DNA of 64,000 nucleotides from Microthrixaceae bacterium (GTDB lineage: Bacteria > Actinomycetota > Acidimicrobiia > Acidimicrobiales > Iamiaceae), in the NCBI GenBank assembly GCA_016702505.1, contig JADJDU010000003.1, forward strand, positions 256,265-320,264, written 5' to 3'. This document shows, one piece after another, positions 4,492 to 39,583 of the stretch. The first letter of the stretch is position 1, and every line of letters begins with the position of its first letter. The notes beneath the pieces are model-generated. The model searched no databases and had not been told where the DNA came from. It saw only the letters and a list, made by a program, of their open reading frames with translations. A program made the position numbers and the translations under genes.

Positions 4492-4525
4492 CGCAGCAGA
4501 GTACCCAGATCGGTGACCGGGCCCG

Positions 4526-15325: not shown

Positions 15326-15450
15326 ACAGGCGGGGCGTGTCGCAGATCGGGGACAAGGAATCGCGGTGAGTTCGCGATTTCTGCGCGGTTTTCGAGGCCT
15401 AGAGAGGCCTACGTAGGTAACGGGATCATCGCGCCCGTTCGGAGGTCACC

Positions 15451-15912: not shown

Positions 15913-15970
15913 AGGAGCTACCCGTGACCGAACCGACTCGAGCGCAAGCGTCGCAGCGATCGACAGACGA

Positions 15971-20611: not shown

Positions 20612-21768
20612 CAGTTCCCACCAATCTCTATCAAATCGCGGTTGAGGCCGCCATCCAGGCCGAGCCGGAGGAGTACAGACTCAGAGACGGGAACCATTAC
20701 AGATACCTTCTGTGAAAGACCGGCGAGCTCTCTTGTAGTCCCACGGTCGGGATCAAACTCAAGCAAATTAGAACCATACGGAAGTGGCGTAGCAATGACT
20801 GAGTCGACGGTTGGCCAACTAAATGGTTGGAGGGCTCCGAATCCAGGGGCCAGCGATACTTCTGTCCAGACCCCTGACGAGATGTCAAGCACTGCGCCTC
20901 GAGTCGGAGACTCGGGTGGCCCCCATGGAATAATGACAACGTGGCTTTTCGTGCAATTTACCTTCAATCCCGTACCCGCGCCTGTCAAGATTTTGGGCGA
21001 GTTGCGGATGTCCGCCCATCTGCCATCTACGTCCAACACGGAAAGCTGAGTTGCGAGCTCCTCAGAACCTTTCGTATCAAACGGAAGCATCGCCGCTTCT
21101 CCAGAGGATGCGATCAAACGATCGCCCGACTGGCACAAAGAACCGCTTGTCTGCTCTATGGGAGTCCAACCATCAACAACTCTCTGAGCGTACTGTATTC
21201 CGGGACTTCCGTTTGAATTAGCATATCCCATTACAAGCCTACCGTAAGACGAGTTCAAACTAACATATCGGCCGACCATGGACATGTCTGCTAAGCCTGG
21301 CTCCGGTAGATCTAGGGCCCGTTCCTTGCCAGTAGTAAGATCGTATTCAAACAGACGGTACCCTCCGGGCTCACAGATAAACTGCCCTACGTCGTCGTAT
21401 TGGAACTCACCTACGCACGGAATACCAGCCAAGAAGAGCGATCGCCCGATTGCAGTCGCAACCGGCTCGGCTAAAGGTGTGCTCAGACTCAAGTTGTCCA
21501 CCACTTCCCCGTCTGAATTGAGTCGCACTCCAGAGCGCGTCGCAATGACGCCACCACCGGTGCGTTCGTGCCCAACAACAATTACCGCACCGCCATCGGC
21601 GAGAGGAACAGTGAGTGGATCCACTGTGCCTTCGGTGACCTTAATAAGATAGTCCCGTTCCGGGAGCTGATCACCGCCACTCGATTGACGGCTCGGCTCA
21701 ATCTGCTCCTGATCGCCACAAGATACGGTCCCCACAACCAGAACGCCCGCAGCGATAATCCGGTACAT
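20611..21768 (-). CDS. hypothetical secreted protein/lipoprotein (cargo gene, lower GC)
   Basis: N-terminal hydrophobic signal ending ...VVGTVSCGD (lipobox-like). No recognisable domain. Its stop overlaps the start of the EEP gene. Confidence 0.5.
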   Translation of the reverse strand: MYRIIAAGVLVVGTVSCGDQEQIEPSRQSSGGDQLPERDYLIKVTEGTVDPLTVPLADGGAVIVVGHERTGGGVIATRSGVRLNSDGEVVDNLSLSTPLAEPVATAIGRSLFLAGIPCVGEFQYDDVGQFICEPGGYRLFEYDLTTGKERALDLPEPGLADMSMVGRYVSLNSSYGRLVMGYANSNGSPGIQYAQRVVDGWTPIEQTSGSLCQSGDRLIASSGEAAMLPFDTKGSEELATQLSVLDVDGRWADIRNSPKILTGAGTGLKVNCTKSHVVIIPWGPPESPTRGAVLDISSGVWTEVSLAPGFGALQPFSWPTVDSVIATPLPYGSNLLEFDPDRGTTRELAGLSQKVSVMVPVSESVLLRLGLDGGLNRDLIEIGGN

Positions 21769-22372
21769 GGATCTGACGACCATTTCTTGAGTCCATTCAG
21801 TGCGAAGACGACCGGCACCGAGCACGATATCAGGCGCTGGCCTGCGCAGGCGGGTAGCTCCAGTCTCGACACATACCCGCTCTTCGGATCTGAGGGAGAA
21901 GTGATCGGCGGGTAGGGGTATCGGCTAGACCCCATCTGAAGGCCGACGTCGCTCAGAGCATCGGCATAGCCGAAGTACTGGCCAAGCGAGCCCTTGATCC
22001 TCTGGTCGACGTCGGCGTCGGTGCCGAGCCGCGCGGCATGACGTGCGCGTCGTTGGTGAGCCGCTGGTCTCGGTGGCGCAGCTCGACCGAGTAGCCCATG
22101 CAGCCCAGGGCCGGAGCGGACCACGTCATTCCGCGTCTTCTGGAGCAGCAGCCATACGGACCGGCTTCTCGGTCACAGGCACCCTGCTTCGGCCGCTCCT
22201 AACCCTTATATGGGGAGCGCCACCAGCCGCGCTCGTCTCGGGCAACCCTCCACCGCGTATCTCACCGCGTAGCTCGGTGGACCGGGGTGCGTCCAGAGGT
22301 ACAGAACAGACGGACTGCTTCAAGGGAACGGCAGGTCAGGGTACAGATCGGTACGCAATGGCACGCTGTTCG

Positions 22373-26103: not shown

Positions 26104-27232
26104 CTGTCAATGGCCAGGAGCGGCCCGTGCGCGTCCTCGACCTGGTCAAGGGGCTCGACCGAGGCGGAGCCGAGACGCTCCTACTGACCGGCGCCCGCCA
26201 CCGGTACCCCGCCATCACCTCCGAGATCGCCTACCTGAGCTCCCGCCACGACCAACTCGTCGATGAGCTGACCGCCGAGGGGGTGAAGGTCACATGCCTG
26301 GCACCAGGTTCTATGGTCGACCCCCGCTGGCTTTGGCGTTTGCGTCGCGCCTAGCCGAAGTGGACGTGACCCATTCCCATTCACCGGTCCCGGCCACCGC
26401 GGCCAGGATCGTCTCGCGGACGATTCCCCGCCACCGTCGACCATCGCTGGTGACCACCGAGCACAACGTCTGGGACAGCCACCACCCCCTGACCAGACTG
26501 GCCGAGCGGATCACCTTCAAACTCGACGACGCCCACCTAGCAGTGTCCACCGCTGTGCTCGAGTCGCTCCCAGAGACCTACCGACCGGGTGTCGAGGTGG
26601 TGAGAGCGGGTGTCGACCTCGACGACGTCCGCTCTCACGCCGACCGGACCGGGATGCGCACAGAACTGGGAGTCTCCGATGACGAGGTCCTGATCGGCAC
26701 CGTGGCGAACCTGCGAGCGCAGAAGGGCTATCCCGACCTCCTGAGAGCGGCAAGACACGTGATCGATGCCGTGCCCAACGCCCGGTTCGTGGCCGCGGGA
26801 CGAGGGCCCCAACAGGGCGAGCTGGAGGCCCTGCACCTCGACCTGGGCCTAGGTGACCGATTCAGGTTCCTCGGTCACCGGGCCGATGCCGTGCGGGTGA
26901 TGTCCGGGCTGGACCTGTTCTGCCTCGCATCGCATCACGAAGGCCTGCCCGTCGCCCTAATGGAAGCACTGGCTCTGGGTCTGCCGGTGGTGTTGACATG
27001 AGTTGGAGGCATTCTTGAGCTGATCACCGACGGTGATCAAGGCCTCTTGGTCGACATCGGGTCGGTGGACGCCCTGGCCAACGCCCTCATCTCCGAGGCC
27101 CGCAACACCGAAGAACGCGCCACCCACGCCCGGGCGGCGCTGGCCACCGGCGATCAGCTCTCGATCAAGACCTCGGTGAAGCGGACCGAGGATCTGTACC
27201 GAACGATGGTCGAGGCCCGATGAGCGCCACCG
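26082..27232 (+). pseudogene. GT4 glycosyltransferase with one frameshift (~26340) and an in-frame TGA (26998-27000)
   Basis: ORF 26082..26354 is the N-term (RVLDLVKGLDRGGAETLLL...DPRWLWRLRRA). ORF 26294..27001 continues (LAEVDVTHSHSP...EGLPVALMEALALGLPVVLT*). After the TGA the same frame reads VGGILELITDGDQGLLVDIGSVDALANAL..., the canonical GT4 C-terminus. Confidence 0.6.
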
Positions 27233-29219
27233 AACCGGGTACCGGCGGTCACGAGGCCGGTCAGGCCCGCGAAGGCGACATTCCCAACCTTCAACGCCAA
27301 CTCGAAGCAGAACGGGCCGGAGCCACCTATTGGCGAGAACGGGCCCAGCACCACGAGAGCGCCCTGGCTGAGATCAAGTCCCGAACCGGGGTCCGAGCGG
27401 TCCTGGCTCTCGAACGTCGCACCGCGGGGATTCGCCGACGAGCCAAGGCCGTCGCCGCCGAGGTCCAAGCCGCCGGTTCGAGGTCAGCGCTGACGATTTC
27501 GGCCTTGCCCACGAGGGCGGTGATCCCCTCCCGACGCCGGGCGTTGGACGAAGCGGTGGCCCAAGCCAATCGCATGCCCCCCCTCGACCTTCGGCCAGTC
27601 CTGGTGGTGTGCATCGGGGTTGCATCGCCTCCGGCGTGGGCGGCATCAGTGGCCAGTCGTTCGACCGCCTCCGGCTCGATCACCGTCACCGTGTCCGAGA
27701 TCGAGGACCTGCCCGAGGTTGTGTCTCAGGCCGACGACGAGATCGAACTGATCTGCCTGGTCGATGCCCAGGTCGAGCCGCTCACGTCCACCTGGCTGGA
27801 CCATCTGTATGGGTCCCTCACCGAGAACGACGCGGCCGCGGCAACCGGCGTCATGGTTCACCCCCAACGGGCCCTCGCTCATTCGACGCCTCACGACTAC
27901 CTGATCCGCTCAGCCGGGTTCGAAGTGCTCACCGACACCTCGGGCGCCCCATCGGTGGTCCCGCTCCTGGCCGGCAGCATCGTCTCCCGTGCTGTCGACC
28001 GCACCGTCGATCTGGCCGGCGGGGCAATGTTGTTGGTGGATCGCCAGGCCGCGGTCGCCGCCGGTGGCTTCGACCGCTGGGGTTCCGCCGATGCCTGTGC
28101 CGTCGACCTGTGTTCGAGGCTCAACCGGAGGGCCCGGGCCGTGACCGTGGCGTCGGCTGCGCTCGGTATCGACCACCGCGACGTAACCGATCGACGCGGA
28201 TTGCGCCGCCCCTTCGACGAGACCGCTCCGGTTTGGTGCGATCTGCTCGAGCGATGTGGTCCGGCGCTGCGCCGAAGCGCAGCCACCGACCGCAATGCCC
28301 CGACATCGTTCACGTTCGCGGTGGCTGCACCCTCACCCAAGGTGGCCGACCGATGGGGTGATTGGCACCTGGCCGAGGCCATGTCCCGCGCCCTGCGATC
28401 GGCGGGATACGGAGCCGCCGTCCACACCAATCAGAGCGGAACGATCCCGGGGCCCTGTGTGCCGACGTTCAGGTGGTCGTCCGTGGCCTGGCTGGCTCGA
28501 CCCCCACCCCGGGACGCCACCAGGTGCTGTGGGTTATCAGCCACCCTGAGGACCTGCAGATCACCGAGTGCGACCGAGCCGACCTGGTACTGGTCGCTTC
28601 GAAGCTCTACGCCGATCACCTGGCGACCCTCACCTCGACTCCTGTCGGCGTGCTCCTCCAGGCCACCGACACGGCGCGCTTCCGCCCGGTACCCACCAAC
28701 CCGGATCGTCACCACGACGTGGTGGTGGTCGCGAAGTCCAGGGATGTCCTTCGGCCCATGGTGTCCCACGCCCTGGCGGCCGGCCTTCGGCCCGCCATCT
28801 ACGGCAGCGGTTGGGACCACCTAATACGACCGTCACTGATCGTCTGCGACCACATCGACAACGAATCCCTCCCCGAGCTCTACTCATCGGCCGGAGTTGT
28901 CCTCAACGACCACTGGGACACCATGCGCCACTGGGGCTTCCTGTCCAACCGCCTGTTCGACGTCCTCGCCTGCGGTACACCTGTCATATCCGACCCGATT
29001 CCCGGCCTCGGGGAACACCTCGGCGACCTGGTACCAACCTGTTCGACACCCGGTGAGCTGGCAGACCTGGTCCGCGGTGCGTTGTCGCTGAACCGAGACG
29101 CCTTTGCCGAACGGGCCCGGACAACCATCACCGCGGCCCACACCTTCACCCAGCGGGCCCGCGAGCTGACCAACGCATTGGCCGCGGCTGGAGTTCCCAT
29201 CCACCATCCAGTGTGCTGA
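27220..29219 (+). pseudogene. CgeB-family / group-1-like glycosyltransferase with N-terminal coiled coil; one frameshift at ~28440 within CCGGGGCCC (or a sequencing indel)
   Basis: ORF 27220.. is coherent to ...AVHTNQSG and then degenerates. ORF 28362..29219 continues from ALCADVQVVVRGLAG...HQVLWVISHPEDL...DLVLVASKLYADHLA (DUF3880/CgeB-like) through a GT1-type C-terminus. Confidence 0.5.
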
Positions 29220-29282: not shown

Positions 29283-29738
29283 ATGGGTTACGTGATGGTG
29301 CCGGTGCCCGAGGAACACGTCGAGGAAGCGATGGAGGCCGTCCTTCGCATCACGCGCAGCGCTCGACTCACGCCTTGGGATCAGGAATCCATGGATGAGT
29401 TCTGGGCCGGGCTCGACGAGGGGGCCAAGGCCTTGGCTTCGTTGGTTGCCAGGGCAACGCTGGCCAACCGGCAGATCTCCCAGGCATCAGCAGCAGACCG
29501 CATGGAGGTCACCCAACGGGAGATCCTCGGGATCGTGCGAGACGTGAACCACCGAGCCCACGACATCGAAAGGCCCGCGGTCCTGATGGTCCAGGAGGCC
29601 ACCGAGACCCTGGCCAACGGGCGGACCCGGCCGGTTTCCATCGTTTCCACCAACGTGGCGCTGGCCCCCCTGATCCAACAGGCCGAACAGAACGACCTGG
29701 CCGGAGGCACCTCCACAGGGAGCGGGCTTCCGGGGTGA
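29283..29738 (+). CDS. hypothetical small protein, paralog of 49946..50374 (shared N-terminus MG.V.VPVPEEH.EE)
   Basis: 151 aa. Stop overlaps the wzm-wzt start (ATGA). No recognisable domain. Confidence 0.5.
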   Translation: MGYVMVPVPEEHVEEAMEAVLRITRSARLTPWDQESMDEFWAGLDEGAKALASLVARATLANRQISQASAADRMEVTQREILGIVRDVNHRAHDIERPAVLMVQEATETLANGRTRPVSIVSTNVALAPLIQQAEQNDLAGGTSTGSGLPG

Positions 29739-31378
29739 CAGACTTCGCCAGCGCGGCCGGCGAGCGCCCGTACAGCGACGTCGAGTACGTCTTCGAGCCG
29801 CACGACCACTCGCTTCCCGACCCTCGCGGCTACATCCGCGATGTCTGGGATCGTCGTGCCTTCATGGTGGCGAACGCCAAGGCGGAGATGAAGAGCCCCT
29901 ACGCCGGGACCGTTCTGGGCGAAGCCTGGCACATCCTCGATCCGCTCTTCCAAGCCCTGATCTACATGTTCCTGTTCACCGCTATCAGAGGAAACGGGAG
30001 CACCGACTACTTCCTCATGGTCGTGTCGGGGGTGTTCCTGTTCAACTTCACCATGGTCGGTCTGGGTCGTGGAGGGCGGGCCATCCAACGGTCGAAAGGG
30101 CTGGTGCTCAATTCGACCTTCCCGCTGGCAACCCTCCCGTTCTCGATGCTGTACGGCGGGTTCTTGGAGTTGTTGCCCACGTTGGGCGTGTACGCCGTGT
30201 TCCACCTCGTCTTCGGGGAGCGTTCGGGGTTGGCTTGTTCACCCTTCCTCCTGTTCATCCTTCAGGTCGCGATAATCGTGGGGCTGATGCTCCTCTTCGC
30301 CACCCTCACCGTCTACGTGAGGGACATGTCCAACCTGTTGGACTACATCCTCCGTATCCTGATGTTCGTCACCCCGGTCATCTATCCGGCGTCCCAGTTG
30401 GAGAAGCTCCCCACGGTTCTGGCCGCGATTTTGCACCTGAACCCGTTCTTCACCCTCTTCACCTCCTACCAGACCGCACTGAGCGGTGGGGTTCCGCGGC
30501 CCACGGACATCGCCCAGTCGATGGTGTGGGCCGTGGTGCTACCCATCTTGGGATTTCGGTTCTTCGTGTCCGGGAACGGGCTTCGCCATGAGGCTCCAGT
30601 GACTACAGGACCCGATCTGCCCGCGATCGAGGTGCAGAACCTGTCGACGTCCTACCACGTCCACCTCGACGCTGGTTCGACGTGGGGCGGCATCTACGAC
30701 CTGCTTCGACGCAGCCCGGACACCGACAGGATCGTCCCGGCCTTACGAGATGTCTCCTTCGAGGTGCCCCGAGGCAACGTTCTGGGTGTCATCGGACGAA
30801 ACGGTGCCGGAAAATCGACCCTGCTGCGCTGCATCGCTGGGGTACTACCCCCCGAACAGGGGCGAGTGGTGGTCCGGGGCCGAATCTCCTCACTTCTCAG
30901 CATCGGCGTGGGCATGAACGGCAGCCTCACCGGACGGGAGAACATCAGGCTCGGTGGTCTGGCCATCGGCCTGAGCCCCGACCAACTCGATGACATGACC
31001 GACGACATCGCCCACTTCGCCCAGTTGGGCGAGTACGTGGACTTCCCGGTCAACGCCTACTCGTCGGGGATGAAGGCCCGCCTCGGATTCGCGGTCGTCG
31101 CCCACTTGGACCCCGAAGTCCTCCTCATCGACGAGGCCCTGGCTGGCGGCGACTCCAAGTTCCAGGAGAAGGTGGCCAAGAAGATGGCCGAGATCTGCAG
31201 CAGCGGCCGGACCATCGTCTTGGTGAGCCACGGTCTCAATGCTCTGCGGTCGATGGCCACCACCGCCATTTGGCTGCACCAAGGACAGATCGTCGAGGAC
31301 GGGGACCCCGATGACGTCGTTTCCTCATACATGCGCTTTGCTCGAATCCAGGCCCTCGGCGGCGAACTCGACTTCTGA
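29735..31378 (+). CDS. fused ABC-2 permease / ATPase polysaccharide exporter (Wzm-Wzt / TagG-TagH-like)
   Basis: N-terminal six-TM ABC-2 domain. C-terminal NBD with Walker A GRNGAGKST, signature YSSGMKARLGFA and Walker B LLIDEAL. No C-terminal carbohydrate-binding extension. Confidence 0.85.
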   Translation: MTDFASAAGERPYSDVEYVFEPHDHSLPDPRGYIRDVWDRRAFMVANAKAEMKSPYAGTVLGEAWHILDPLFQALIYMFLFTAIRGNGSTDYFLMVVSGVFLFNFTMVGLGRGGRAIQRSKGLVLNSTFPLATLPFSMLYGGFLELLPTLGVYAVFHLVFGERSGLACSPFLLFILQVAIIVGLMLLFATLTVYVRDMSNLLDYILRILMFVTPVIYPASQLEKLPTVLAAILHLNPFFTLFTSYQTALSGGVPRPTDIAQSMVWAVVLPILGFRFFVSGNGLRHEAPVTTGPDLPAIEVQNLSTSYHVHLDAGSTWGGIYDLLRRSPDTDRIVPALRDVSFEVPRGNVLGVIGRNGAGKSTLLRCIAGVLPPEQGRVVVRGRISSLLSIGVGMNGSLTGRENIRLGGLAIGLSPDQLDDMTDDIAHFAQLGEYVDFPVNAYSSGMKARLGFAVVAHLDPEVLLIDEALAGGDSKFQEKVAKKMAEICSSGRTIVLVSHGLNALRSMATTAIWLHQGQIVEDGDPDDVVSSYMRFARIQALGGELDF

Positions 31379-31399: not shown

Positions 31400-32602
31400 G
31401 TGACGATCCCTTTCACTCCATTCGAAGACGACGACCTCCCACCCAGATCACGTCCTGTCAAAGAGCCCGAGCCGATCGACGACACCGTGCCGCCAACGTC
31501 AGCGCAGACGGGCCGAACCCCCGATGCCGGCGCCTCCAGCGACGATGTGACCGAAGACGACGACGAACCCCGCCTGGGGACGTCGCCCACCATCTCCAAG
31601 GCCGACGTCTCGGCCAAGGCGTCTAGGCGCAAGGCTCGGACCGGGGGTTCAGGTGGCTCAGGAGCGCGGCGCCGCAGCCGCCCCATCCTGGGGATCTCAC
31701 TCGTGGTTCTGGCGGCGGTGGTGTTCGCTGGCCTTCCGCTCCTCAAGTCGGCGTTCGCCCGCACACCCAAGGACCGCATCGGCATCAGCTACGGCGGTGG
31801 CCCGATCGAAGGCGTTCACTTCCAAAAGATCGTCGAACCCGGCCACGGCCTCTTCTTCAACGGCTTCTTCGATTCTCTCTACCTCTACCCCGCCGACCAG
31901 CTCAACTACATCCTGGCTCCCAAGCCGACCAAGGACGGCAAGGACACGACCCCCGACGCGGTCGTTGCACCCACCTCAGACCGTGTGAACGTGAGCTATC
32001 AGGTTGCCGTCTACTACCGGCTGAACACCGACAAGCTCCGAGACTTCCACGAGGAGTTCGGCCTCCGCTATCAGGCCTACACCAACAAGGGCTGGGATCG
32101 CCTGGTGGCCGACACCCTGCGCCAGCAGATCGAGGCTGCCCTCCAGGAGGAGACCAGGCGGCACACCGTCGCCGACCTGTTCGGGGACGCTGACCTTCTC
32201 GTCAAGGTCCAGAACGAGATCCAGGGAACCATCAGCACCCGCCTGGAAGCGGCGATGGGCGGACGGTTCTTCTGCGGCCCCACGTTCACAGCGGGCGGTG
32301 AGTGCGGCAACCCGACCTTCGTGATCAAGCGGATCGACATCCCCGAGTCGGTAGCCGCCGCCTTCGAGTCGAACCGGACTTCTGAGGTGATGATCACCAC
32401 CCGCCAGAACGAGGTCCGTCAACGCGAGGAGGAGGCTCGGGCCATCGCCGCCATCAACGAAGCCCTCCAGCAGAACTCCCGCGCCTACGTGATGCTCAAG
32501 GCCATCGAGTCCGGGAAGATCAACTTCTGGGTCATCCCCGAGGGAGCAGACGTCGACCTCACCGCTCCCGACACCTCCACGCCGCCCACGGCCGGCCAGT
32601 AA
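31400..32602 (+). CDS. SPFH/band-7 (stomatin/prohibitin-like) membrane protein with acidic disordered N-terminus
   Basis: One TM (ILGISLVVLAAVVFAGLPLL) followed by an SPFH-like core and a C-terminal coiled coil. Confidence 0.65.
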   Translation: MTIPFTPFEDDDLPPRSRPVKEPEPIDDTVPPTSAQTGRTPDAGASSDDVTEDDDEPRLGTSPTISKADVSAKASRRKARTGGSGGSGARRRSRPILGISLVVLAAVVFAGLPLLKSAFARTPKDRIGISYGGGPIEGVHFQKIVEPGHGLFFNGFFDSLYLYPADQLNYILAPKPTKDGKDTTPDAVVAPTSDRVNVSYQVAVYYRLNTDKLRDFHEEFGLRYQAYTNKGWDRLVADTLRQQIEAALQEETRRHTVADLFGDADLLVKVQNEIQGTISTRLEAAMGGRFFCGPTFTAGGECGNPTFVIKRIDIPESVAAAFESNRTSEVMITTRQNEVRQREEEARAIAAINEALQQNSRAYVMLKAIESGKINFWVIPEGADVDLTAPDTSTPPTAGQ

Positions 32603-32622
32603 GCATCGGCACTCCCCTAACC

Positions 32623-35458
32623 ATGCAGCTGGTCATATTGGGAATGCACCGGTCCGGCACCTCGGGTGTCACCCGGCTGCTGAACATGGCCGGCGCCTAC
32701 TTTGGCCCCCCAGGGATCGCCACCGATGCCAACGAGGAGAACCCCAAGGGTTTCTGGGAACGCCGAGACGTGCGCGCCCTGTGCGACGGGCTCCTCCAGG
32801 GAGCCGGATTCGACTGGTTCCGACTCGGCGGCTTCTGAGCCGTCCGCCATCCCCGATGATCTACGTCAGGTCCAGGCAGAAGCCTTTGCTCATGTCCTAG
32901 ATGACCTGAACGCCCATCAGCCTTGGGTGGTGAAGGAACCGAGGCTCTGCCTGCTCATGCCGGTTCTGGAACACCTCCTCGACAGCGCGGTGTTCGTTCA
33001 CGTGTCGCGTGACCCCATCGAGGTGGCCCGATCCGTACACCACAGGAACAACCTCCCGATGGCGGGAGCCGTCGCCCTCTGGGAGACCTACACCCTCAGC
33101 GCCCTTTCGGCATCCGCAGGCCGCCCGCGGGCCCACGTCCGCCACGAGGAGGTCATGGCTGACCCGGTCGGCACCTTGAACCGCCTGATCGCTGACCTGG
33201 AAGCGTTGGGTGTGACCGGACTCGTCGCACCGGACCCCGAGGCGATAACCGACTTCATCGTTCCCAGCCTTCACCGCCAGCGCAGCGATCGCTCCAATCG
33301 GGAACACCACCTGAACGCCGACCAGCTCCACCTGGCCGACCTGTTGGACCGCAACCCACTGCCTGAGGTCCTGCCGCCACTGTCAGCAGGTGGGGCCGAC
33401 GCGCTTGCCGACCTCGTCCGCTTCGATGACGAGATCGTGGCCCGCAAGCAGGCCGAGCTCGACCAGCGGAGGGCACAGGCCGAGACCAGGCGGCTGACAG
33501 CCGAGACCCAAAGGCTTGAGCGCGCTATCGAGCGCATGGAAGCCACCCTGGACCATGAGCGAACCAGAAGGGCCGAACTCGGAGCGTCAGCCCTCGAATC
33601 GCTGGACCGAGCCGAGCGCGACATCAGGGCCATGACTGCTGGCCGGACCGCGACGGCCGCCGCCTACCTCACTGCCGCCCGCCGCACCGTGACACCTGGC
33701 GTCAGTCGGACCGACCCAACTCCGTTCTCCCGGGCCCTAGCCGGCGTCGAGAAGGGACGACGTCGCATTCGCGGGATGACCGCCGACTTACCCAGCACCT
33801 CGGTACGTACCACGACCCCTGGGATTGCTGAGGACCAAGCCGACCCCCCATCCAAACCTGAGACTCCGATCCAGCGGACCCGGCCTAGAACACCGAGCAG
33901 CGATCGACCGAAGGTGGCCGTACTGGCCTGGGACGTAGGGCACAACCCGCTGGGTCGAGCCAACGTATTGGCCGAGGTCTTGAGCGGTGATTACGAGGTA
34001 GAGCTCTGGGGCGCTCAGTTCGAGCGATATGGAAGCCGGATCTGGGCCCCGCTGCGAGACATCCCGACTCCTGTGAACGTCTTCCCCGGACGTCCCTTCC
34101 CCGACCACCTCGAGACGATGGAACAGGTCGCCGCCACCATCGATGCCGACGCCCTCTGGGTGTCCAAGCCTCGGCTGCCATCGTTCCTGCTCGGGGCATT
34201 GACCAAACAGCTCCGAAATCGACCACTGGTGCTGGACATCGATGACCACGAGCTGGCGTTCTTCGACGTCGACGAAGGGTTGGACATCAGATCGCTCTCA
34301 CCCCGACGCGGCGACAAGTCGCTGATTCTCCCCTTCGAGCGGGACTGGACCCGTGCCTGTGAGCCCTTGGTCGGTGGGGCAGATCTCCTCACCGTGTCCA
34401 ACGTCGCCCTCCAACAACGGTTCGGGGGCACGATCGTCCCCCACGCCCGGGACGAGGACATCTTCGACCCCGGAGTCGTAGACCGTGGAGCGGCTCGCCA
34501 TCGGCTGGGCATCGGGCCCAACGAGCGGGTTCTGCTCTTCGGGGGAACACCAAGGCTTCACAAGGGGATAATGGAGATCCTCACCGCGCTCGAGAAGCTC
34601 GGCGACCGTCGCTACCGGCTGATGGTGTTCGGAACCCGCGAGTTCGACGAGATGCGACCCCAGATCGGTGATTTGGCTCGATGGCTCCTACCCCTTCCTT
34701 ATCAGCCGTTCTCGGCGTTGCCCGAGGTGGTGGCAGCGGCCGACCTGGCCTGCATCCTCCAGAACCCCGAACATCCGGTCTCGGCGTACCAACTGCCGGC
34801 CAAGCTCACCGATGCGTTGGCCATGGGGGTGCCGGTCCTACTGCGGGAGACCCCACCGCTCCGTCCGATCATCGAGGCCGGGGCCGTCGCTGCTCTCCAG
34901 CCCGAAGACGACCTCGCAGATGCCATCGGTGCGGTATTCGAAGATGCCGAGACCACCTCTGAGCGGGTGGATGCCGGCCGCCGGCTGTTCCTGGACACGA
35001 TGAGCTATGGGGCGGTCCGCCACCAGATCCGCCCGGTGTTCGACTCGCTCATCAGCGATCCCCCCGCCCTATCTGCTGACCTCCGTGCCCTGATAGAGGT
35101 GCCAACGGAGTTGTTCGCCGGTCAGACCTCCTCGAGCCGCGAACCCCAGGCGTTCGCGCCAACCGTCGCGGCCTCGAGTCTCGGACCTGGCTGTACGGCG
35201 GCTCCCGGACCAGACGTCTCGGCCTGCCGGCCCGCAGCGACTACGTCGACCACGTCACCCGCGCACTGGCGAAGAAGGGCATCGGCGAGCGGCCATGGGT
35301 GCTTTGGGCATACCCGACAAATCCCGACCTCCCCCTTCTCATCGATCGTCTTCGTCCCGACGTGGTGTTGGCCGACGTGGTGGACGACAACCGGACCTGG
35401 TACTCACCGGGTACCGCCGAGCACGATCGGATCGACCAGAACTACCGCGACGTGCTGA
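32623..35458 (+). CDS. multidomain sulfotransferase / coiled-coil / GT4 glycosyltransferase fusion (frameshift at ~32835; region after ~35100 probably mis-framed)
   Basis: ORF 32623..32838 is the 5'-PSB motif MHRSGTSGVTRLLNMAG. The 32702.. frame continues with sulfotransferase KEPRLCLLMPVLEHL...HVSRDPIEVARSVHHRN. Coiled coil ~33400-33650, a Pro/Thr linker, then a GT4 domain at 33900-35050 (VAVLAWDVGHNP...GVPVLLRETP). Confidence 0.6.
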
Positions 35459-36129
35459 GCCGCTCCGACCTGGTCATCGCCAACTGCGAGCCGGCAGCCG
35501 CGGCCATGAAGGAGTTCGCCCCCGAGGTGCACGTGGTGCCCAATGGTCTCGAGCTCGATCCCCCGACGGTCACCGCCAAGATCGATGTGCGCGCTTTCGG
35601 CAGCCCGATCATCGGCTACGTGGGGAACCTCTCGTCCCGCATAGACATCGATCTGCTCGACGCCCTAGCCCGGGCACGACCTCGCTGGCAGTTCGTGTTC
35701 GTGGGCTCGACCCACCTGGACCCAGCCATCCTCCGCCTCGATGAGCACGCCAACGTTCATTTCCTCGGAGTTGTCCACCATCACCAGGCCAGAGCGATCA
35801 TGGCCGACTTCGATGTGGCTCTCATTCCCCACATCGACAACGAGATGACCCAGTCGATGAATCCACTCAAGGCTTTCGTGTACGCCTCCGTTGGTGTCCC
35901 GGTCGTGTCTACGCCCATCGCCAACCTGGGCGAACTAGGTGGGCTCATCTCGATCGCCAGCGGGGTCGACGGCTTCGTGACCGCCATCGAAGCCGAGCTG
36001 ACCAAGCCGCGCACCTCCGTCGACCGTGCCAGGCTCGAACCCCATTCCTGGGGGTCGCGACTGAAGTCGGTCCTGGATCTGATCGACGGCATCGGCCGTG
36101 GTGATTCGCCTTTGGGACCTAACAACTAG
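35299..36129 (+). CDS. glycosyltransferase group 1 C-terminal-domain protein; N-terminus may continue upstream to ~35080 in the same frame or belong to the preceding fusion protein
   Basis: GYVGNLSSRIDIDLLDALARARPRWQFVFVG...PLKAFVYASVGVPVVST is a GT-B C-domain. Upstream same-frame peptide ...RRLGLPARSDYVDHVTRALAKKGIGERPWVLW has no start codon. Confidence 0.5.
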   Translation: MLWAYPTNPDLPLLIDRLRPDVVLADVVDDNRTWYSPGTAEHDRIDQNYRDVLSRSDLVIANCEPAAAAMKEFAPEVHVVPNGLELDPPTVTAKIDVRAFGSPIIGYVGNLSSRIDIDLLDALARARPRWQFVFVGSTHLDPAILRLDEHANVHFLGVVHHHQARAIMADFDVALIPHIDNEMTQSMNPLKAFVYASVGVPVVSTPIANLGELGGLISIASGVDGFVTAIEAELTKPRTSVDRARLEPHSWGSRLKSVLDLIDGIGRGDSPLGPNN

Positions 36130-36187
36130 ATGCGCGTTCGCTGATAGCTTCCGCGCGTCGTCATCTGTCAAGGGGTAGATCCGCAAC

Positions 36188-39100
36188 ATGTATCCGTTCT
36201 GGGATATCGCTGTCGCGCCAGCGCTCAAGGCCGCCAAATCACGAAGGATCGTGGAGATCGGTGCCCTCCGTGGGGAGACCACGGCGTTCATGCTCGCCGA
36301 CCTCGGAGCCGACACCGAGCTTCACGTGATCGACCCTGTTCCGGTCTTCGATCCGTCTGAGCACGAGGAGCAGTTCCCTGGTCGCTACATCTTCCACCGC
36401 GACCTGAGCCTCAACGTCCTGCCCGATCTCCCAGCGGTCGACGCCGCCCTGATCGACGGTGACCACAACTGGTACACGGTGTTCAACGAGCTGCGGCTGT
36501 TGAGCGAGACCGCCCGCGCCGCCGAGGCCCCACTGCCGCTCCTGGTCCTCCACGACGTCGGGTGGCCCTACGGCAGGCGGGACCTGTACTACGTCCCCGA
36601 GCAGATCCCCGAGGAGTTCCGCCAGCCCTACGCCGCTCAGGGAATGCTCAGGGGCCAATCCGAGCTGGCCGAGCGAGGCGGGCTGAACCCCACCAACTGC
36701 AACGCCACCCACGAAGGTGGGCCCCGCAACGGCGTCATGACCGCGGTCGACGACTTCATCGATGGCTACGACCGGCCGCTCCGACTCGTGTTCCTCCCCA
36801 CCTACTTCGGGCTGGCGATCGTGGTCGAGGAAACGGTGCTAGAGGCGCACCCGGCGCTCAGAGACCATCTCGACTGGCTCGAAGGCAGGGATGGTCAGGC
36901 CGCCTTGGTCGAGATGACCGAGGCCTCCCGGCTCGACACGCTCGTCATGCAGCACAGCGTCTACTTCACCGACAAGGAGCGGAGCGCGGCGGCCGCCGAC
37001 CGCTACCTCGGGCTGCTGGAGGGCGCCCTCCTCAACGAGCACTACATCGAACAGGAGATCCGCATCAGCTACCTGCTGGAGTGCAGCGAGCGCGGCATCA
37101 CCCCTCGACCCGAGGCACTTCGAGACCCAGCCCGCCAGCTCACCGAGGAGCTCCAGCGCCTTCGTCGGGCCAGACACGCCGGCGATACCGTCGACGATGC
37201 CGGGCCTGTGGGTGCCGCGTTCCCCTACACCACCGTCGGGCGCCAGCACCTCCGCCACCTTGTCCAGCTTCTCGACACCATCCATGCCGAAGCGGTGACC
37301 GGAGACCTTGTCGACATAGGCCCAGGACGCGGCGGTACCTCCATCCTTTTCCGGGGATACCTCGAGGCCTACGCCATCGACGTGCCCCGGGTATGGGTGG
37401 TCGACCGGTTCCGAGCTCGTCCAGCGCCATCCGATGATCCTCGGGCGACGTCTGTCGGTCGAAGTGGCGACAAGCCTGTAGAGGCCCAGAGTGCCTGGGA
37501 AGTCGTGGGAGGACCGGGACTGCCGGAACTGCTCGGGGACCTCAACAGCGTTCGCGAAGGTTTCCATTCCTTCGACCTACTCGATGACCAAGTTCGGTTC
37601 GTGGCCGGAGACGACCTCACCGCCCTGGAAGCCGCTCCCATCGAACGGATTGCGTTGCTCCACCTGGGTGAACGGTCGGCTTTGGACGTTGCCGCTGCCC
37701 TTGATCTGCTCTACGACCGTCTGACACTGGGTGCATTCATTGTGGTCGACGACTTTGACGACCCCGACCGCCGGGCTGCGGTGGAAGCGGTCCGGGCCCG
37801 ACATGGGTCCGACGAGGAGATCGTCACCATCGACCACGGCACCGTCATGTGGCGCAAGACCGAGAGGTCCCAGGCCGAGCTCGATGCGGCCGACGGAGCC
37901 TTGCCATCCTCAGACGATCGACCCACCGGCCCCGTGTTGGCCCCAGCACGAGGCTGGTTCCCGACCGACCTAACCGTGGTCGTGGTCTTCTACAACATGA
38001 AGCGCGAGGCAGCCCGGACGTTGCATTCGCTGTCCCGGGCCTACCAGCAAGGTATCGACGACATCACCTACGACGTCGTCGTCGTCGACAACGGCTCGGC
38101 CCCCGACCAGAAGCTCGATCCGGCCTGGGTCCGAAGCTTCGGCCCGGAGTTCCGGTTCATAGACATGGGCAGCGATGCCAAACCGTCGCCCATCCCGGCA
38201 CTTAACCGCGGGATCGCCGAAGGCCACGGCATCAACTACGCCCTCATGATCGACGGTGCCCACGTCCTCACCCCTGGCGTCCTTCGCCACGGCCTGGCCG
38301 GCCTGACCACCTATGCCCCCGCCGTCGTCGCCACCCAGCAGTGGTATGTGGGCCCCGGACAACAGGCCGATCTGGTGGCAGAGGGCTACAACCAGAGTTA
38401 CGAAGACGTCCTCTTCGACAAGATCAACTGGCCCTCAGATGGCTACCGCCTGTTCGACATCGGCCACTTCATCGGCGAGCGAGACTGGTTCGACGGCATG
38501 TGGGAGTCGAACTGCCTGTTTGCTCCCCGCAGCCTCCTCGAACAGGTCGGAGGGTTCGACGAACGGTTCTCTATGCCCGGTGGCGGATACGCCAACCTCG
38601 ACCTCTACGAGCGACTCGGCGCCAGCCCTGACGTCACGGTGGTGACCATGCTCGGTGAGGGGTCGTTCCACCAGGTCCACGGAGGTACGACCACCAATCT
38701 GTCCGGTGACGAGAAGCGCCACAACACCCTGGCCGAGTACTCCCAGCACTACCAGGATGTTCACGGTCGCCCGTTCCGCGGCAACGCCAAACCGGTGCAC
38801 TACGTCGGGTCCATGCCCCGTGAGGCAGCCCGCACAAAGGCCCGCCGTCGGGTTTCGCCCAACATGTTCAGCCTTCATGCGCCCGACCAGGTCGGCGGAG
38901 TACCCGAGAAGGCATCACCGATGCCGCAGGACCTGTGGTCGGAGTTCACCGACGCCTACTGGCACACCCTCAAGTGGCGCCAGACCCATTGGATGGGTCA
39001 GCGATTGTCCAAGCTTCCTGGAGACATGGTGATCATCCAGGAGATCCTCACCAAGGTCCGGCCCGACTGGATCGTCCACACCGGCACCGCCAACGGTGGA

Positions 39101-39583
39101 CTGGACTGGTTCCTGGCCACGATCTGCGACCTGCTCGACCACGGTCAGGTCATCTCCATAGACCGCAAGCTGCACGAAGACCTTCCCCGCCACGATCGCA
39201 TCACCTACATCGAGGGCGAAGCCCACCTTTCCAAGGTGAACAAGCAGGTCACCGACCTGACCGGTCCCGATAGCCATGCCGTGGTCATATTGGGCACCAA
39301 GGCCAGCTCAGCACGGACTTCGGCCGAGTTCCACATCTACGAGGACCTGGTCCCCGAGGGGTCGTACCTGATCGTCGAGGACACGATCGTCGGTGGCCAC
39401 CCGGTGTGGGGCAACTTTGGGGTCGGGCCCTACGAAGCTGTCAAGGGCATCACCGAAACCAGGGGAGACTTCGTATCCGACACATCCCTGGAGAAGTACG
39501 GCCTGACGTTCAACACCACCGGCTACCTCCGGCGGATCAGCAAGGTCCAACACACGGCGCGCCGAAAAGGGCGCAAACGCTGA
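36188..39583 (+). CDS. giant four-domain enzyme: CmcI-like MTase / TylF-like O-MTase / GT2 glycosyltransferase / CmcI-like (rhamnosyl-O-MTase-type) MTase
   Basis: 1131 aa. aa 1-200: IVEIGALRGETT...LIDGDHNWYTV. aa ~340-560: LVDIGPGRGGTSILFRGYLEAY...VWVVDRF. aa ~600-850: TVVVVFYNMKREAARTLHSL...YDVVVVDNGS (GT2). aa ~930-1131: VIIQEILTKVRPDWIVHTGTANGGLDWFLA...VEDT (CmcI family). Confidence 0.85.
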   Translation: MYPFWDIAVAPALKAAKSRRIVEIGALRGETTAFMLADLGADTELHVIDPVPVFDPSEHEEQFPGRYIFHRDLSLNVLPDLPAVDAALIDGDHNWYTVFNELRLLSETARAAEAPLPLLVLHDVGWPYGRRDLYYVPEQIPEEFRQPYAAQGMLRGQSELAERGGLNPTNCNATHEGGPRNGVMTAVDDFIDGYDRPLRLVFLPTYFGLAIVVEETVLEAHPALRDHLDWLEGRDGQAALVEMTEASRLDTLVMQHSVYFTDKERSAAAADRYLGLLEGALLNEHYIEQEIRISYLLECSERGITPRPEALRDPARQLTEELQRLRRARHAGDTVDDAGPVGAAFPYTTVGRQHLRHLVQLLDTIHAEAVTGDLVDIGPGRGGTSILFRGYLEAYAIDVPRVWVVDRFRARPAPSDDPRATSVGRSGDKPVEAQSAWEVVGGPGLPELLGDLNSVREGFHSFDLLDDQVRFVAGDDLTALEAAPIERIALLHLGERSALDVAAALDLLYDRLTLGAFIVVDDFDDPDRRAAVEAVRARHGSDEEIVTIDHGTVMWRKTERSQAELDAADGALPSSDDRPTGPVLAPARGWFPTDLTVVVVFYNMKREAARTLHSLSRAYQQGIDDITYDVVVVDNGSAPDQKLDPAWVRSFGPEFRFIDMGSDAKPSPIPALNRGIAEGHGINYALMIDGAHVLTPGVLRHGLAGLTTYAPAVVATQQWYVGPGQQADLVAEGYNQSYEDVLFDKINWPSDGYRLFDIGHFIGERDWFDGMWESNCLFAPRSLLEQVGGFDERFSMPGGGYANLDLYERLGASPDVTVVTMLGEGSFHQVHGGTTTNLSGDEKRHNTLAEYSQHYQDVHGRPFRGNAKPVHYVGSMPREAARTKARRRVSPNMFSLHAPDQVGGVPEKASPMPQDLWSEFTDAYWHTLKWRQTHWMGQRLSKLPGDMVIIQEILTKVRPDWIVHTGTANGGLDWFLATICDLLDHGQVISIDRKLHEDLPRHDRITYIEGEAHLSKVNKQVTDLTGPDSHAVVILGTKASSARTSAEFHIYEDLVPEGSYLIVEDTIVGGHPVWGNFGVGPYEAVKGITETRGDFVSDTSLEKYGLTFNTTGYLRRISKVQHTARRKGRKR

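Follow-up and report, generated by a model that had tools for sequence, protein, structure and literature searches.

The locus at 32623-36129 of the window (the 64,000-nucleotide stretch of Microthrixaceae DNA analysed here) raises the question of whether its sulfotransferase and glycosyltransferase (GT) sequences, which are spread over shifting reading frames, belong to one protein, and what such a protein would do. A first-pass annotation, made from the sequence alone, had described a sulfotransferase N-terminus joined to a complete GT4 domain by a coiled coil and a Pro/Thr linker and followed by an orphan GT C-terminal domain, with frame breaks near 32835 and between about 35100 and 35300. 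Three-frame translation and the list of open reading frames (ORFs) show frame 1, which opens with MQLVILGMHRSGTSGVTRLLN, to be open over 32623-32838 and to end in a TGA at 32836-32838. Frame 2 then supplies ...KEPRLCLL...SRDPIEVARSVHHRN..., the charged helix, the P/T-rich linker and the GT4 domain before degenerating into low-complexity nonsense beyond ~35150; frame 1 reopens at ~35080, has no ATG, GTG or TTG upstream of 35299, and stops at 36127-36129. The region is almost certainly a single gene with a four-part architecture that is broken in this assembly, and its features are as follows.

32623-32835, + strand: sulfotransferase residues 1-71 in frame 1, by translation identical to residues 1-71 of the intact allele P0001
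32641-32664, + strand: 5'-phosphosulfate-binding loop GMHRSGTS, with little or no variation among 93-114 homologues
32836, + strand: extra T that produces the TGA stop and a +1 frameshift; missing from L001, L002, L083 and L084, and outside any homopolymer
32837-33358, + strand: sulfotransferase residues 72-245 in frame 2 (Pfam Sulfotransfer_3; Foldseek matches of the P0110 AlphaFold model)
32933-32944, + strand: KEPR, invariant or nearly so among homologues
33005-33034, + strand: 3'-phosphate-binding motif SRDPIEVARS, within the frame-2 sulfotransferase piece
33395-33640, + strand: long charged alpha-helical spacer, residues ~258-339, a putative coiled-coil or single-helix ruler (AlphaFold models of homologues, composition)
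33632-33778, + strand: conserved basic stretch following the spacer, residues 337-385 (sequence; length kept at ~48 aa)
33779-33907, + strand: Pro/Thr/Ser-rich flexible linker, residues 386-428 (sequence; pLDDT <50 in the equivalent stretch of the model)
33908-35098, + strand: GT4 (GT-B) module 1, residues 429-825 (Pfam Glycos_transf_1 and Glyco_trans_1_4)
35154-35155, + strand: junction of a 277-nt deletion (blastn against L001, L002, L083 and L084)
35155-36129, + strand: remnant of GT module 2, a TuaH-like GT4, residues 937-1260 plus the stop codon, in frame 1 (Pfam, NCBIfam)

Four independent assemblies, each from a different sample (L001, L002, L083 and L084), have the gene unbroken, and an identical domain order recurs in more than 100 clusters of homologues of 1185-1408 aa. 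The intact product is a 1260-aa cytoplasmic enzyme composed of a sulfotransferase, a helical spacer with basic segment and linker, a GT4 module and a TuaH-like GT4 module; the earlier suspicion that the true protein was even larger was well founded, the downstream GT being its fourth module. DNA alignment to the intact relatives traces the two suspected frame breaks to the T inserted between GGCTTC and GAG and to the deletion, which is clean and has no microhomology flanking 35154/35155. This deletion cuts away the last part of the inter-module linker together with residues ~844-936, among them the invariant FWKQNDTGIYGRR motif of GT module 2. The second GT loses its N-terminal core in this way, which explains the apparent orphan C-domain, a remnant that matches the P0001 C-terminus save for two residues. 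Once reconstructed, the window product differs from the intact near-identical alleles by 1-6 amino acids. As written in the window, the gene is non-functional, with the T at 32836 severing the PAPS loop and the 277-nt deletion removing the core of module 2.

Since the two lesions occur in this genome alone and the four independent assemblies are intact, a sequencing or assembly error is likely. Thirteen other small indels near the gene, mostly in C/G homopolymers, are private in the same way, and 10 of the 11 deleted bases fall in C/G runs of at least three, which account for 13% of bases (p = 1e-8), a signature of nanopore consensus error. Alternatively, the lesions may be real and mark a decaying glycan locus in which the polymerase/terminator gene, wzm and three GT genes have been inactivated, with loss or switching of the surface glycan under, for example, phage pressure. 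Such decay would be in keeping with the clustering of indels within the glycan genes (12 small ones in 22.6-32.8 kb versus one in 35.2-46.1 kb), with private substitutions that include five clustered C>T changes at 26994-27034, with the adjacent integrase and TrwC relaxase, and with the fact that neither the T insertion, outside any homopolymer, nor the clean deletion is a typical long-read error. Nevertheless, it is somewhat unlikely, given an indel/substitution ratio of ~0.45 at only ~0.13-0.3% divergence, a 643,761-bp contig typical of a long-read assembly, an intact allele only one residue away, and the agreement of the four other assemblies, with their differing SNP haplotypes, at every indel site. 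For the small indels, homopolymer error in long reads is the most likely origin, and the 277-nt deletion may represent either a misassembly or a real strain variant.

The sulfotransferase head is recognized by Sulfotransfer_3 (PF13469) over residues 3-193 of the intact allele P0001 (42.7 bits versus a cut-off of 27). In the window, the frame-2 piece reaches 27.3 bits against the same cut-off, and the 71-aa N-terminal fragment by itself has no Pfam match. GMHRSGTS (residues 7-14) and SRDPIEVARS (residues 128-137) fit the patterns xRSGT[ST] and R-x-P-x(5)-S, respectively, and stand in different frames in the window because of the T at 32836; R10, G12, R129, P131 and S137 show no variation among 93 homologues, and RxPxExxxS is invariant or nearly so among homologues. 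The AlphaFold model of the homologue P0110 (pLDDT 91.7) retrieved PAPS sulfotransferases at all of Foldseek PDB ranks 1-26 (best E = 4e-6). Taken together, the conserved motifs and the modelled fold suggest that the head of intact alleles is probably an active PAPS sulfotransferase.

The spacer that follows is rich in A (19%), R (17%), E (14%) and L (12%) and nearly devoid of P (0.2%), and the corresponding position in AlphaFold models of the homologues P0107 and P0110 is taken up by helices of 61-71 residues. It is the variable part of the protein: among 114 homologues its length ranges from 36 to 153 aa (SD 23), in contrast to SDs of 1-8 aa for the catalytic modules, and across phyla the interdomain region extends from 141 to 619 aa (35 species representatives). 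The coiled coil of the first-pass annotation was borne out as a long predicted helix, but not as a strict heptad repeat; the periodicity of the window protein is not significant (z = 0.44) and that of the family is modest (mean z = 1.36), so 'long helical spacer' is the safer term, and the element could be a single charged helix instead of a coiled coil. The basic segment behind it has a mean net charge of +6.4 and amphipathic helices, carries the motif S-x-S-W-[RK]-L-T-A-P-L-R in distant relatives (P0120, L028 and L045), and is possibly a membrane tether.

Both GT pieces of the window match Glycos_transf_1 and Glyco_trans_1_4 above the Pfam cut-offs, and the corresponding matches on P0001 cover residues 623-785 and 1087-1213; the profile searches proposed with the initial description thus recovered both enzyme types. 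Module 1, of nearly constant length across the family (393 +/- 1.4 aa), resembles GT4 enzymes (MshA, BshA, PimA and a methylmannose polysaccharide mannosyltransferase) in Foldseek searches, with E down to 1e-16. The module 2 remnant scores 45.8 bits with Glyco_trans_1_4 (Pfam) and has a weak TuaH-like match (NCBIfam). Two GT-B units are also evident in the AlphaFold model of P0107 (residues 382-773 and 792-1181; pLDDT 90.7). The canonical E-x7-E motif is absent from the C-terminal domains of both modules; module 1 has a conserved Q-x-P-A-K-x-x-D (YQLPAKLTDA, 722-731) and module 2 has MNPLKAFVY (1171-1179), both without the pair of glutamates. Many GT4 enzymes deviate from this motif, so its absence weakens only a strict subfamily assignment.

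The head, helix and GT parts behave as exchangeable modules. Among the long relatives 56 of 57, and among the short ones 72 of 88, have a coiled-coil-like helix directly behind the sulfotransferase, and this sulfotransferase-helix cassette is also fused to unrelated GT sets (GT2 plus GT4; RgpF, TOD1 and GT2; TOD1, GT2 and a WsaF-like domain). It is present in Actinomycetota, Gamma- and Alphaproteobacteria and other phyla, and probably also occurs as stand-alone WbdD-like proteins. Conversely, the homologous double-GT module carries other heads, namely Methyltransf_24 with a coiled-coil-like helix (L028), PS_pyruv_trans (L027) and a class I methyltransferase (L066); a helical spacer is not obvious in the latter two.

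The genes surrounding the locus include an ABC transporter and several glycan-modifying enzymes.

29735-31378, + strand: ABC-transporter genes wzm and wzt, read as one 547-aa ORF (Pfam ABC2_membrane and ABC_tran)
31400-32602, + strand: membrane protein of the SPFH/Band 7 type, encoded between wzt and the sulfotransferase gene (Pfam Band_7)
36188-39583, + strand: 1131-aa protein directly downstream, with Methyltransf_24, TylF, GT2 and CmcI (rhamnosyl O-methyltransferase-like) (Pfam, NCBIfam)

The merging of wzm and wzt in the window results from five single-base deletions; L001 has them as distinct genes of 290 and 259 aa. They lie 1.2 kb upstream of the sulfotransferase-GT gene, and the order wzt, SPFH/Band 7, sulfotransferase gene is kept in 13 Acidimicrobiia loci, with the 1131-aa protein adjoining the sulfotransferase-GT gene in 21 related loci. 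Of 80 related loci, Proteobacteria included, 44 have a wzt homologue no more than 8 kb away, often directly upstream. Many in-chain modifiers are encoded in the neighbourhood, namely TylF/CmcI methyltransferases and hexapeptide acyltransferases. The cluster, a large one, probably makes an ABC-transporter-dependent, O-methylated, 6-deoxyhexose-containing glycan, and the sulfotransferase-GT protein is, with good confidence, the polymerase of an ABC-transporter-dependent glycan. No cap-reading carbohydrate-binding module was found on the Wzt of the locus (259 aa, no extension) or on most linked Wzt proteins; the exception, at locus L031, has a cap-reading Wzt_C (PF14524; 37.7 bits versus a cut-off of 30.4). 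An integrase gene and a TrwC relaxase gene adjoin the glycan cluster.

The most plausible overall reading, held with somewhat better than even confidence, is a broken gene for a WbbB-like fusion of polymerase, ruler and terminator with a sulfate cap. It is proposed that the two GT modules, situated near the membrane, would alternately lengthen a polyprenol-linked chain, and that the sulfotransferase at the far end of the helix would reach and sulfate the non-reducing end only when the chain is long enough, whereupon the sulfate would stop further extension. The helix would then serve as the ruler, as in WbbB (Klebsiella O12), ORF6 (O7) and WbdD (E. coli O9a), and the sulfate as the cap. This specific assignment, drawn by analogy, is about evenly balanced; comparison of homologues supports it through the variable spacer length, the swapping of head domains and the linkage to wzm/wzt, and the Wzt without a carbohydrate-binding module speaks against it, as termination in the known prototypes goes together with recognition of the cap by such a module. 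[quoted passage not shown] The layout is thus already known to fix polysaccharide chain length in other bacteria, where sulfate is not known as the chain-ending cap.

The WbdD-like logic of the first-pass annotation stands in its outline of a ruler and a terminator, with a function that remains inferred; the nearer prototype is WbbB or ORF6. WbbB of Klebsiella pneumoniae O12 and Raoultella terrigena likewise joins, in a single chain, an N-terminal terminator, an extended helical/coiled-coil spacer and a C-terminal pair of polymerising GT modules (PMC11231755), and is likewise encoded alongside wzm/wzt. However, its head is a GT99 beta-Kdo transferase instead of a PAPS sulfotransferase, which places the window protein outside the WbbB family and makes the likeness architectural only. 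Moreover, the GT modules come from other families than those of WbbB: the two in the window are both GT4 enzymes of the GT-B type and have no detectable sequence similarity to the solved WbbB parts, and the Wzt of the WbbB system, unlike that of the window, has a cap-reading module. In an actinobacterial host, furthermore, the glycan produced is not an LPS O antigen.

ORF6 of Klebsiella pneumoniae O7 consists of a methyltransferase-kinase, a carbohydrate-binding module (CBM), a coiled coil and two GT2 modules. [quoted passage not shown] Its cap is methyl-phosphate, whereas that of the window protein would be sulfate; the AlphaFold model of a window-protein homologue has no CBM-like domain between head and helix, and the window GT modules are GT4 rather than GT2.

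In the WbdD/WbdA system of E. coli O9a and Klebsiella O3, a helical ruler also parts the terminator from the polymerase (PMC11231755), and WbdA is a multi-module GT4 polymerase (PMC11231755; PMC3482155). These are two proteins, whereas the window gene has all parts fused. WbdD has a kinase plus methyltransferase head, and neither domain was found by Pfam on the intact P0001; its C-terminus provides a membrane helix and a WbdA docking site, and the only candidate tether of the window protein is the basic segment after the helix.

Sulfation as the capping chemistry, already suggested on first inspection, gains comparative support and is paralleled in animals, where a sulfate cap ends the extension of matriglycan: terminal sulfation by the HNK-1 sulfotransferase stops the dual glycosyltransferase LARGE1/2 and sets polymer length (PMC10955480). 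That sulfotransferase, however, is a separate Golgi enzyme of unrelated ancestry that works without a physical ruler, length being set by expression ratios. A broader and more tentative idea, falling just short of an even chance, is that the sulfotransferase-plus-helix unit represents a widespread, uncharacterised class of glycan chain terminators in which the helix sets length and sulfate is a fourth cap beside methyl, methyl-phosphate and Kdo in ABC-transporter-dependent assembly. If this were true, the lack of a cap-reading module on most Wzt proteins would imply another way of coupling termination to export.

Alternatively, the sulfotransferase could decorate the polymer in-chain, on each repeat or on side groups, with the helix acting in oligomerisation or as a scaffold and length being set by coupling to export. 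Known bacterial polysaccharide sulfotransferases such as Sinorhizobium LpsS and Mesorhizobium KpsS modify internal positions, and the module-free Wzt proteins, the weak heptad signal and the many in-chain modifiers encoded nearby point the same way. Nevertheless, an in-chain modifier needs no rigid spacer that varies at least four-fold while all else stays fixed, nor would it account for the transfer of the sulfotransferase-helix pair as a cassette onto unrelated polymerases. Furthermore, the head slot of the same polymerase also holds methyltransferases and a pyruvyltransferase, which are typical capping chemistries, and coiled-coil-bearing modifiers have proved to be terminators wherever they have been characterised (PMC11231755). 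In-chain sulfation is accordingly rated unlikely, and terminal capping is retained as the working interpretation.

Another reading is that the head acts on something other than the glycan built by the fused GTs, such as a protein, a small molecule or the lipid carrier, or that it has lost catalysis and binds PAPS/PAP in a regulatory role. Among solved structures, the nearest folds belong not to carbohydrate sulfotransferases but to tyrosylprotein and polyketide (CurM/OLS) sulfotransferases, at only 13-20% identity. Together with the mycobacterial Stf enzymes, these Sulfotransfer_3 relatives share the fold and both PAPS-binding motifs, and the Arg-type 5' loop (xRSGTS) of the window protein is also used by TPST. 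They differ from the window protein in being only 13-20% identical to it, in acting on proteins, polyketide intermediates or glycolipids, and in never being fused to a helix and GT modules. Fold neighbours this distant do not predict the acceptor, and the strict conservation of both PAPS-binding motifs, in a head covalently linked to glycan polymerases in several phyla, makes another acceptor, or a dead domain, very improbable; a glycan-directed, active sulfotransferase remains the preferred assignment.

The deposited annotation divides the gene into MBK6855811.1 (842 aa, window 32930-35458) and MBK6855812.1 (255 aa, window 35362-36129), both of which match the window translation exactly and are called 'glycosyltransferase'. 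Despite these public calls, there is next to no likelihood that the three frames are separate functional genes, one for a short piece of the sulfotransferase, one for a coiled-coil protein with a GT4 domain and one for a small protein with a GT C-domain, because the 842-aa product begins within the sulfotransferase fold, past the PAPS loop, and runs out of frame for its last ~100 residues, the 255-aa product has lost the N-terminal Rossmann domain of the GT-B fold, none of the more than 100 homologues is split at these points, and near-identical DNA in the four intact assemblies encodes one ORF, so that in none of these relatives do the frames form independent genes.

The gene at 32623-36129 (+) encodes, when intact, a sulfotransferase head, a helical spacer, a basic segment and a Pro/Thr linker followed by two GT4 modules, and both this four-module architecture and its breakage in the window are established. 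The first-pass annotation had described a sulfotransferase/coiled-coil/GT4 fusion with frame breaks near 32835 and 35100, and its frame description was reproduced by an ORF list and three-frame translation of 32560-36200, which yielded the following pieces.

Reading-frame pieces of the gene, from translation
ATG 32623 to TGA 32836-32838 (+): frame 1 piece, beginning MQLVILGMHRSGTSGVTRLLN and stopping after 71 codons
Frame 2 piece (+): ...EPSAIPDD...KEPRLCLL...SRDPIEVARSVHHRN..., followed by a strongly charged, helix-like region, a region rich in Pro/Thr/Ser and a complete GT4-like domain
Open from ~35080 to stop 36127-36129 (+): second frame 1 piece, ...RRLGLPARSDYVDHVTRALAKKG...VPNGLE...MNPLKAFVY...

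Frame 2 turns low-complexity past ~35150, and the second frame 1 piece contains no ATG, GTG or TTG before 35299. The domain content proposed for these pieces agreed with Pfam, which scored Sulfotransfer_3 at 27.3 bits against a cut-off of 27 and matched both GT pieces to group-1 glycosyltransferase profiles. The public MAG record, on a Microthrixaceae contig of 643,761 bp, presents two truncated 'glycosyltransferases' in place of one four-module gene: MBK6855811.1 (842 aa) is the exact window product of 32930-35458 and MBK6855812.1 (255 aa) that of 35362-36129.

A homologue search with a frame-corrected reconstruction of the window protein recovered over 100 protein clusters (1185-1408 aa) that share its domain set, mostly from Acidimicrobiales or Microthrixaceae MAGs; these are homologous fusions of the kind that the first-pass annotation had proposed to look for. 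One of these proteins, P0001 (1260 aa; used here for residue numbering), is 100% identical over the reconstructed query. After ...SSSREPQA it carries 93 residues absent from the window, the motif FWKQNDTGIYGRR among them, and then runs on into ...GLESRTWLYGGSRTRRLGLPARSDYV..., the second frame 1 piece of the window, which bears out the earlier suspicion that the true protein is larger. The P0001 90% cluster comprises 42 members, including MBK6855811.1, MBK6855812.1 and at least nine proteins of 1260 aa from NCBI, JGI, ENA and Logan. Two members of this cluster, P0124 and P0129, were the source of intact-gene loci, and intact P0129 matches the reconstructed window protein at all but one residue.

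The window DNA was aligned to four independent contigs carrying the intact gene, L001 (JGI sample 3300056788, 537,890 bp), L002 (SRR26425195), L083 (SRR20745511) and L084 (SRR28062884), with 99.7-99.9% identity. Two lesions in the gene emerged from this alignment.

Lesions in the gene
32836: inserted T, changing GGCTTC-GAG to GGCTTCTGAG
Between 35154 and 35155: clean deletion of 277 nt

The deletion, whose junction shows no microhomology, begins with the third base of codon 844 and extends to the end of codon 936, removing the terminal part of the inter-module linker together with the initial Rossmann elements of GT module 2. Thirteen further small indels appear in the same alignment. C/G runs of at least three account for 13% of the sequence yet hold 10 of the 11 deleted bases (binomial p = 1e-8). 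No indel is shared with the four other assemblies, which are concordant at every indel site despite their differing SNP haplotypes. Private single-base indels at 25349, 25434, 26350, 28427, 28827-28830 and 44827, mostly in C/G runs, disrupt genes of the surrounding glycan cluster: two for GT4 enzymes, one for a 666-aa GT and one for a TylF methyltransferase. Because the indels are private and concentrated in C/G runs within a very long contig, the small-indel pattern points to residual long-read consensus errors. Their spread is uneven (12 small indels in 22.6-32.8 kb versus one in 35.2-46.1 kb), for which local polishing failure, strain mixture or real decay may account. As errors, the T insertion and the 277-nt deletion would be less typical, and they could be real variants. 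As written, the window gene is, to judge from its reading frames, non-functional, a state that most likely arises at least partly from assembly error. The deletion junction was unmatched in JGI metagenome contigs, and the control (the intact or +1 allele at 32836) was equally unmatched there, the population evidently being absent, so that neither negative is informative. Programmed frameshifting at 32836 is ruled out, as the extra T occurs in no relative. A Wzm-Wzt fusion is likewise ruled out as a real feature: the 547-aa ORF at 29735-31378 is an indel artefact created by five single-base deletions (30215/30220, 30247 x2, 30572 and 30578), and in the four other assemblies, L001 among them, the two genes overlap but remain distinct, wzm with 290 aa and wzt with 259 aa.

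On a JGI contig of 137,487 bp from the same population, the gene is split elsewhere (P0123/P0121), with a frame change near the equivalent of window 35225; breaks in this gene thus recur in long contigs at unrelated sites. Five C>T differences from L001, L002 and L083, private to the window, lie within 41 nt (26994-27034) and could stem from recombination over a small patch or from a systematic error in the consensus.

In P0001, Pfam assigns residues 3-193 to Sulfotransfer_3 (42.7 bits), 623-785 to Glycos_transf_1 and 1087-1213 to Glyco_trans_1_4, while NCBIfam likens module 1 to WcaI-type enzymes and module 2 to the TuaH type, in both cases weakly and below threshold. An alignment of 114 full-length homologues defined conserved motifs in the sulfotransferase (GMHRSGTS, FWERRD, KEPR, RxPxExAxS), in GT module 1 (W-x(3)-HNP-x-GRA, SKPR, D-x-DD-x-E-x(2)-FF, PHARDE, GT-x-R-x-HKG, Q-x-PAK-x(2)-DA) and in GT module 2 (FWKQNDTGIYGRR, HFD, DDNR, ANCE, VPNG, GNL-x(2)-R-x-D, MNPLK-x(2)-VY). 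The catalytic segments are near-constant in length (sulfotransferase, 215 aa; GT module 1, 393 aa, SD 1.4; GT module 2, 387 aa, SD 8), whereas the helical segment (P0001 residues 262-337) varies widely (36-153 aa, median 76.5, SD 23) and contains obvious internal repeats in some members.

For structure prediction, the C-terminally truncated P0050 was dropped and P0107 used instead. The AlphaFold2 model of P0107 (1185 aa, mean pLDDT 90.7) leads from a compact N-terminal domain through helices at 255-315, 317-332 and 343-365 and then a disordered linker to a pair of GT-B units, and that of P0110 (481 aa, pLDDT 91.7) includes a 71-residue helix with pLDDT above 90. In Foldseek searches against the PDB, the whole-protein model matches GT4 enzymes (MshA, BshA, PimA/PimB' and the methylmannose-polysaccharide mannosyltransferase). 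Since this search is dominated by the GT modules, the N-terminal 481 aa were modelled separately for the sulfotransferase fold, as the P0110 model, and the top 26 matches of that model are exclusively PAPS sulfotransferases, including the OLS and CurM sulfotransferase domains, TPST1/2, Stf9 and Stf1. At the sequence level, phmmer found no match to P0001 in the PDB, and a profile search returned remote GT4 matches only.

The models and the composition of the spacer (19% Ala, 17% Arg, 14% Glu, 12% Leu, 0.2% Pro) uphold a long helical spacer, but the coiled coil originally claimed for it did not find the same backing: heptad periodicity is not significant for P0001 by either a global 3.5-residue Fourier test or a local best-register test. 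The Fourier test was also not significant in P0107, P0017 and P0120, and significant in P0005 only; the family-wide local signal is modest (mean z 1.36, 34% of members above 2). The segment is for this reason termed a long helical spacer, which may be a coiled coil or a single charged helix. It is followed by a conserved, strongly basic segment of ~48 aa (mean net charge +6.4; S-x-S-W-[RK]-L-T-A-P-L-R in distant members), a candidate membrane-interface tether.

The gene lies within a ~37-kb glycan cluster that runs, in order, through three GT4-type genes, a 151-aa ORF, wzm, wzt, an SPFH/Band 7 protein, the sulfotransferase gene, a 1131-aa Methyltransf_24/TylF/GT2/CmcI protein, a PhyH-like dioxygenase, two hexapeptide transferases, two TylF methyltransferases, a GDSL-like protein, an 890-aa radical-SAM protein, a GT2, a 1227-aa methyltransferase/GT2 paralogue, a GT4, a Polysacc_synt_2 dehydratase and rmlA- and rmlB-like genes. 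This content indicates an ABC-transporter-dependent pathway for a glycan that is probably O-methylated and 6-deoxyhexose-containing.

Selected features in and beside the cluster
13733-19315: tyrosine integrase (530 aa) and TrwC relaxase/helicase (1210 aa), upstream of the cluster
~29283-29735 (L001 6656-7111): conserved acidic 151-aa ORF immediately preceding wzm and shared by 15 related loci
31400-32602: SPFH/Band 7 membrane protein (400 aa) between wzt and the sulfotransferase gene, a position kept in 13 Acidimicrobiia loci
36188-39583 (+) and 51416-55099 (-): giant paralogues of 1131 and 1227 aa, sharing the order Methyltransf_24, TylF, GT2, CmcI/rhamnosyl-O-methyltransferase
47157-49829 (-): protein of 890 aa within the cluster, its central domain of the radical-SAM type

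We know of no described ABC-transporter-dependent glycan system with an SPFH/Band 7-type protein. The 1131-aa protein adjoins the sulfotransferase gene in 21 related loci. The integrase and TrwC genes are followed by a low-GC stretch at 19000-22000 (0.56 versus ~0.65), which together suggest an integrative mobilisable element bordering the cluster.

A scan of one genome per species yielded 221 relatives, from which 80 loci were kept. The sulfotransferase head is present in 35 of them, including Gammaproteobacteria (Halieaceae, Chromatiaceae, Thiohalocapsa, Pseudomonadales) and Alphaproteobacteria (Croceicoccus), and in these 35 the sulfotransferase end and the beginning of GT module 1 are 141-619 aa apart. 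In 44 of the 80 loci a wzt homologue is encoded no more than 8 kb away, often with its end just upstream of the gene. On the window-type polymerase, the head position is also occupied by other heads, some of them predicted to transfer methyl or pyruvyl groups: homologous double-GT modules carry Methyltransf_24 followed by a ~150-aa coiled-coil-like helix and an SRRWK motif (L028), a polysaccharide pyruvyltransferase (L027), a class I methyltransferase (L066), TPR repeats (L078) or a GT2 plus sulfotransferase (L029), and extra C-terminal modules are also found. The L028 head is 40% identical to the N-terminal domain of the 1131-aa protein. When the window sulfotransferase-plus-helix piece was searched against 1.84 billion representative proteins, 5501 clusters were recovered at E <= 1e-3 and 122 at E <= 1e-30. 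Among the best 145 of the 5501, 56 of 57 long and 72 of 88 short proteins have a coiled-coil-like helix immediately after the sulfotransferase. Only 11 of the 57 long proteins have the window-type GT module, and six others carry GT2+GT4, GT2+GT4+GT4, TOD1+GT2+WsaF-like GT4 or RgpF+TOD1+GT2. With the helix behind the sulfotransferase in most of these proteins and the GT sets so varied, the sulfotransferase-helix unit behaves as a portable cassette placed before many polymerases.

To our knowledge, chain-length control by a ruler-held terminator has been worked out only for a small number of enterobacterial O antigens, capped with methyl, methyl-phosphate or Kdo. Where such systems have been characterised, a coiled coil carries the terminating enzyme at its distal end and keeps it apart from the polymerising GT modules, and only chains of a minimum length are therefore capped; WbbB (O12) and ORF6 (O7) unite terminator, coiled coil and two polymerase GTs in a single chain, while WbdD/WbdA divide the terminator and polymerase roles between proteins (PMC11231755). 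The studied protein shares with WbbB and ORF6 the order of parts and wzm/wzt as genomic partner. It belongs to neither the WbbB nor the WbdD family, however, its head being neither GT99 nor a kinase/methyltransferase and its GT modules coming from other families. Because of the common part order, the wzm/wzt partner and the spacer variability expected of a ruler, it is proposed that the two GT4 modules would polymerise the chain and that the sulfotransferase head would end it by sulfating the non-reducing end, a sulfate cap and ruler function thus inferred by analogy. The WbdD-like ruler logic of the first-pass annotation, with sulfation as the terminating chemistry, is consistent with these same features, but the carbohydrate-binding module of the prototypes' Wzt is missing from the Wzt of this locus and of most relatives. 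The main rival reading is that the sulfotransferase adds sulfate within the chain and the helix is a scaffold. For termination by sulfate there is a eukaryotic precedent, HNK-1 sulfotransferase acting as a chain stopper on matriglycan (PMC10955480).

The novelty would lie in a sulfotransferase head set into a known terminator/ruler/polymerase layout. The literature searched links no sulfotransferase to WbdD/WbbB-type termination, although a 2019 terminator census (Mann, Kimber, Whitfield) may already list such enzymes; what comes closest is a sulfotransferase-domain ORF of 216 aa, mentioned but left unexplained, that lies between wzt and a WbbB homologue in Aeromonas salmonicida (PMC4483657). 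If sulfate is the cap, the ruler principle would gain a new chemistry and reach Gram-positive-type Actinomycetota, among them relatives of Microthrix, a sludge-bulking lineage, and sulfate-terminated surface glycans of defined length would be predicted in thousands of environmental bacteria, with the interdomain range noted among the head-bearing loci offering a natural helix-length series for probing the ruler model.

A sulfate cap would also raise the question of how termination couples to export without a cap-reading module on Wzt. The 151-aa ORF upstream of wzm, considered as a stand-alone cap reader, has no Pfam match. In two Pseudomonadales genomes carrying a sulfotransferase-helix-GT-GT gene, Wzt has a ~250-aa C-terminal extension (L060, 16410-17858 (-); L071, 16780-18294 (-)) that starts with the P-loop-like FFSGAPGARAHSLG, differs from the usual Wzt_C module and has no Pfam match. 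The best candidate system for recognition of the putative sulfate cap is L031, a locus of an Actinomycetota MAG in which a Wzt with a genuine Wzt_C carbohydrate-binding module (4-1116 (-)) is divergently adjacent to a 1446-aa sulfotransferase-GT-GT protein (1198-5538 (+)) with a mostly helical interdomain of ~360 aa.
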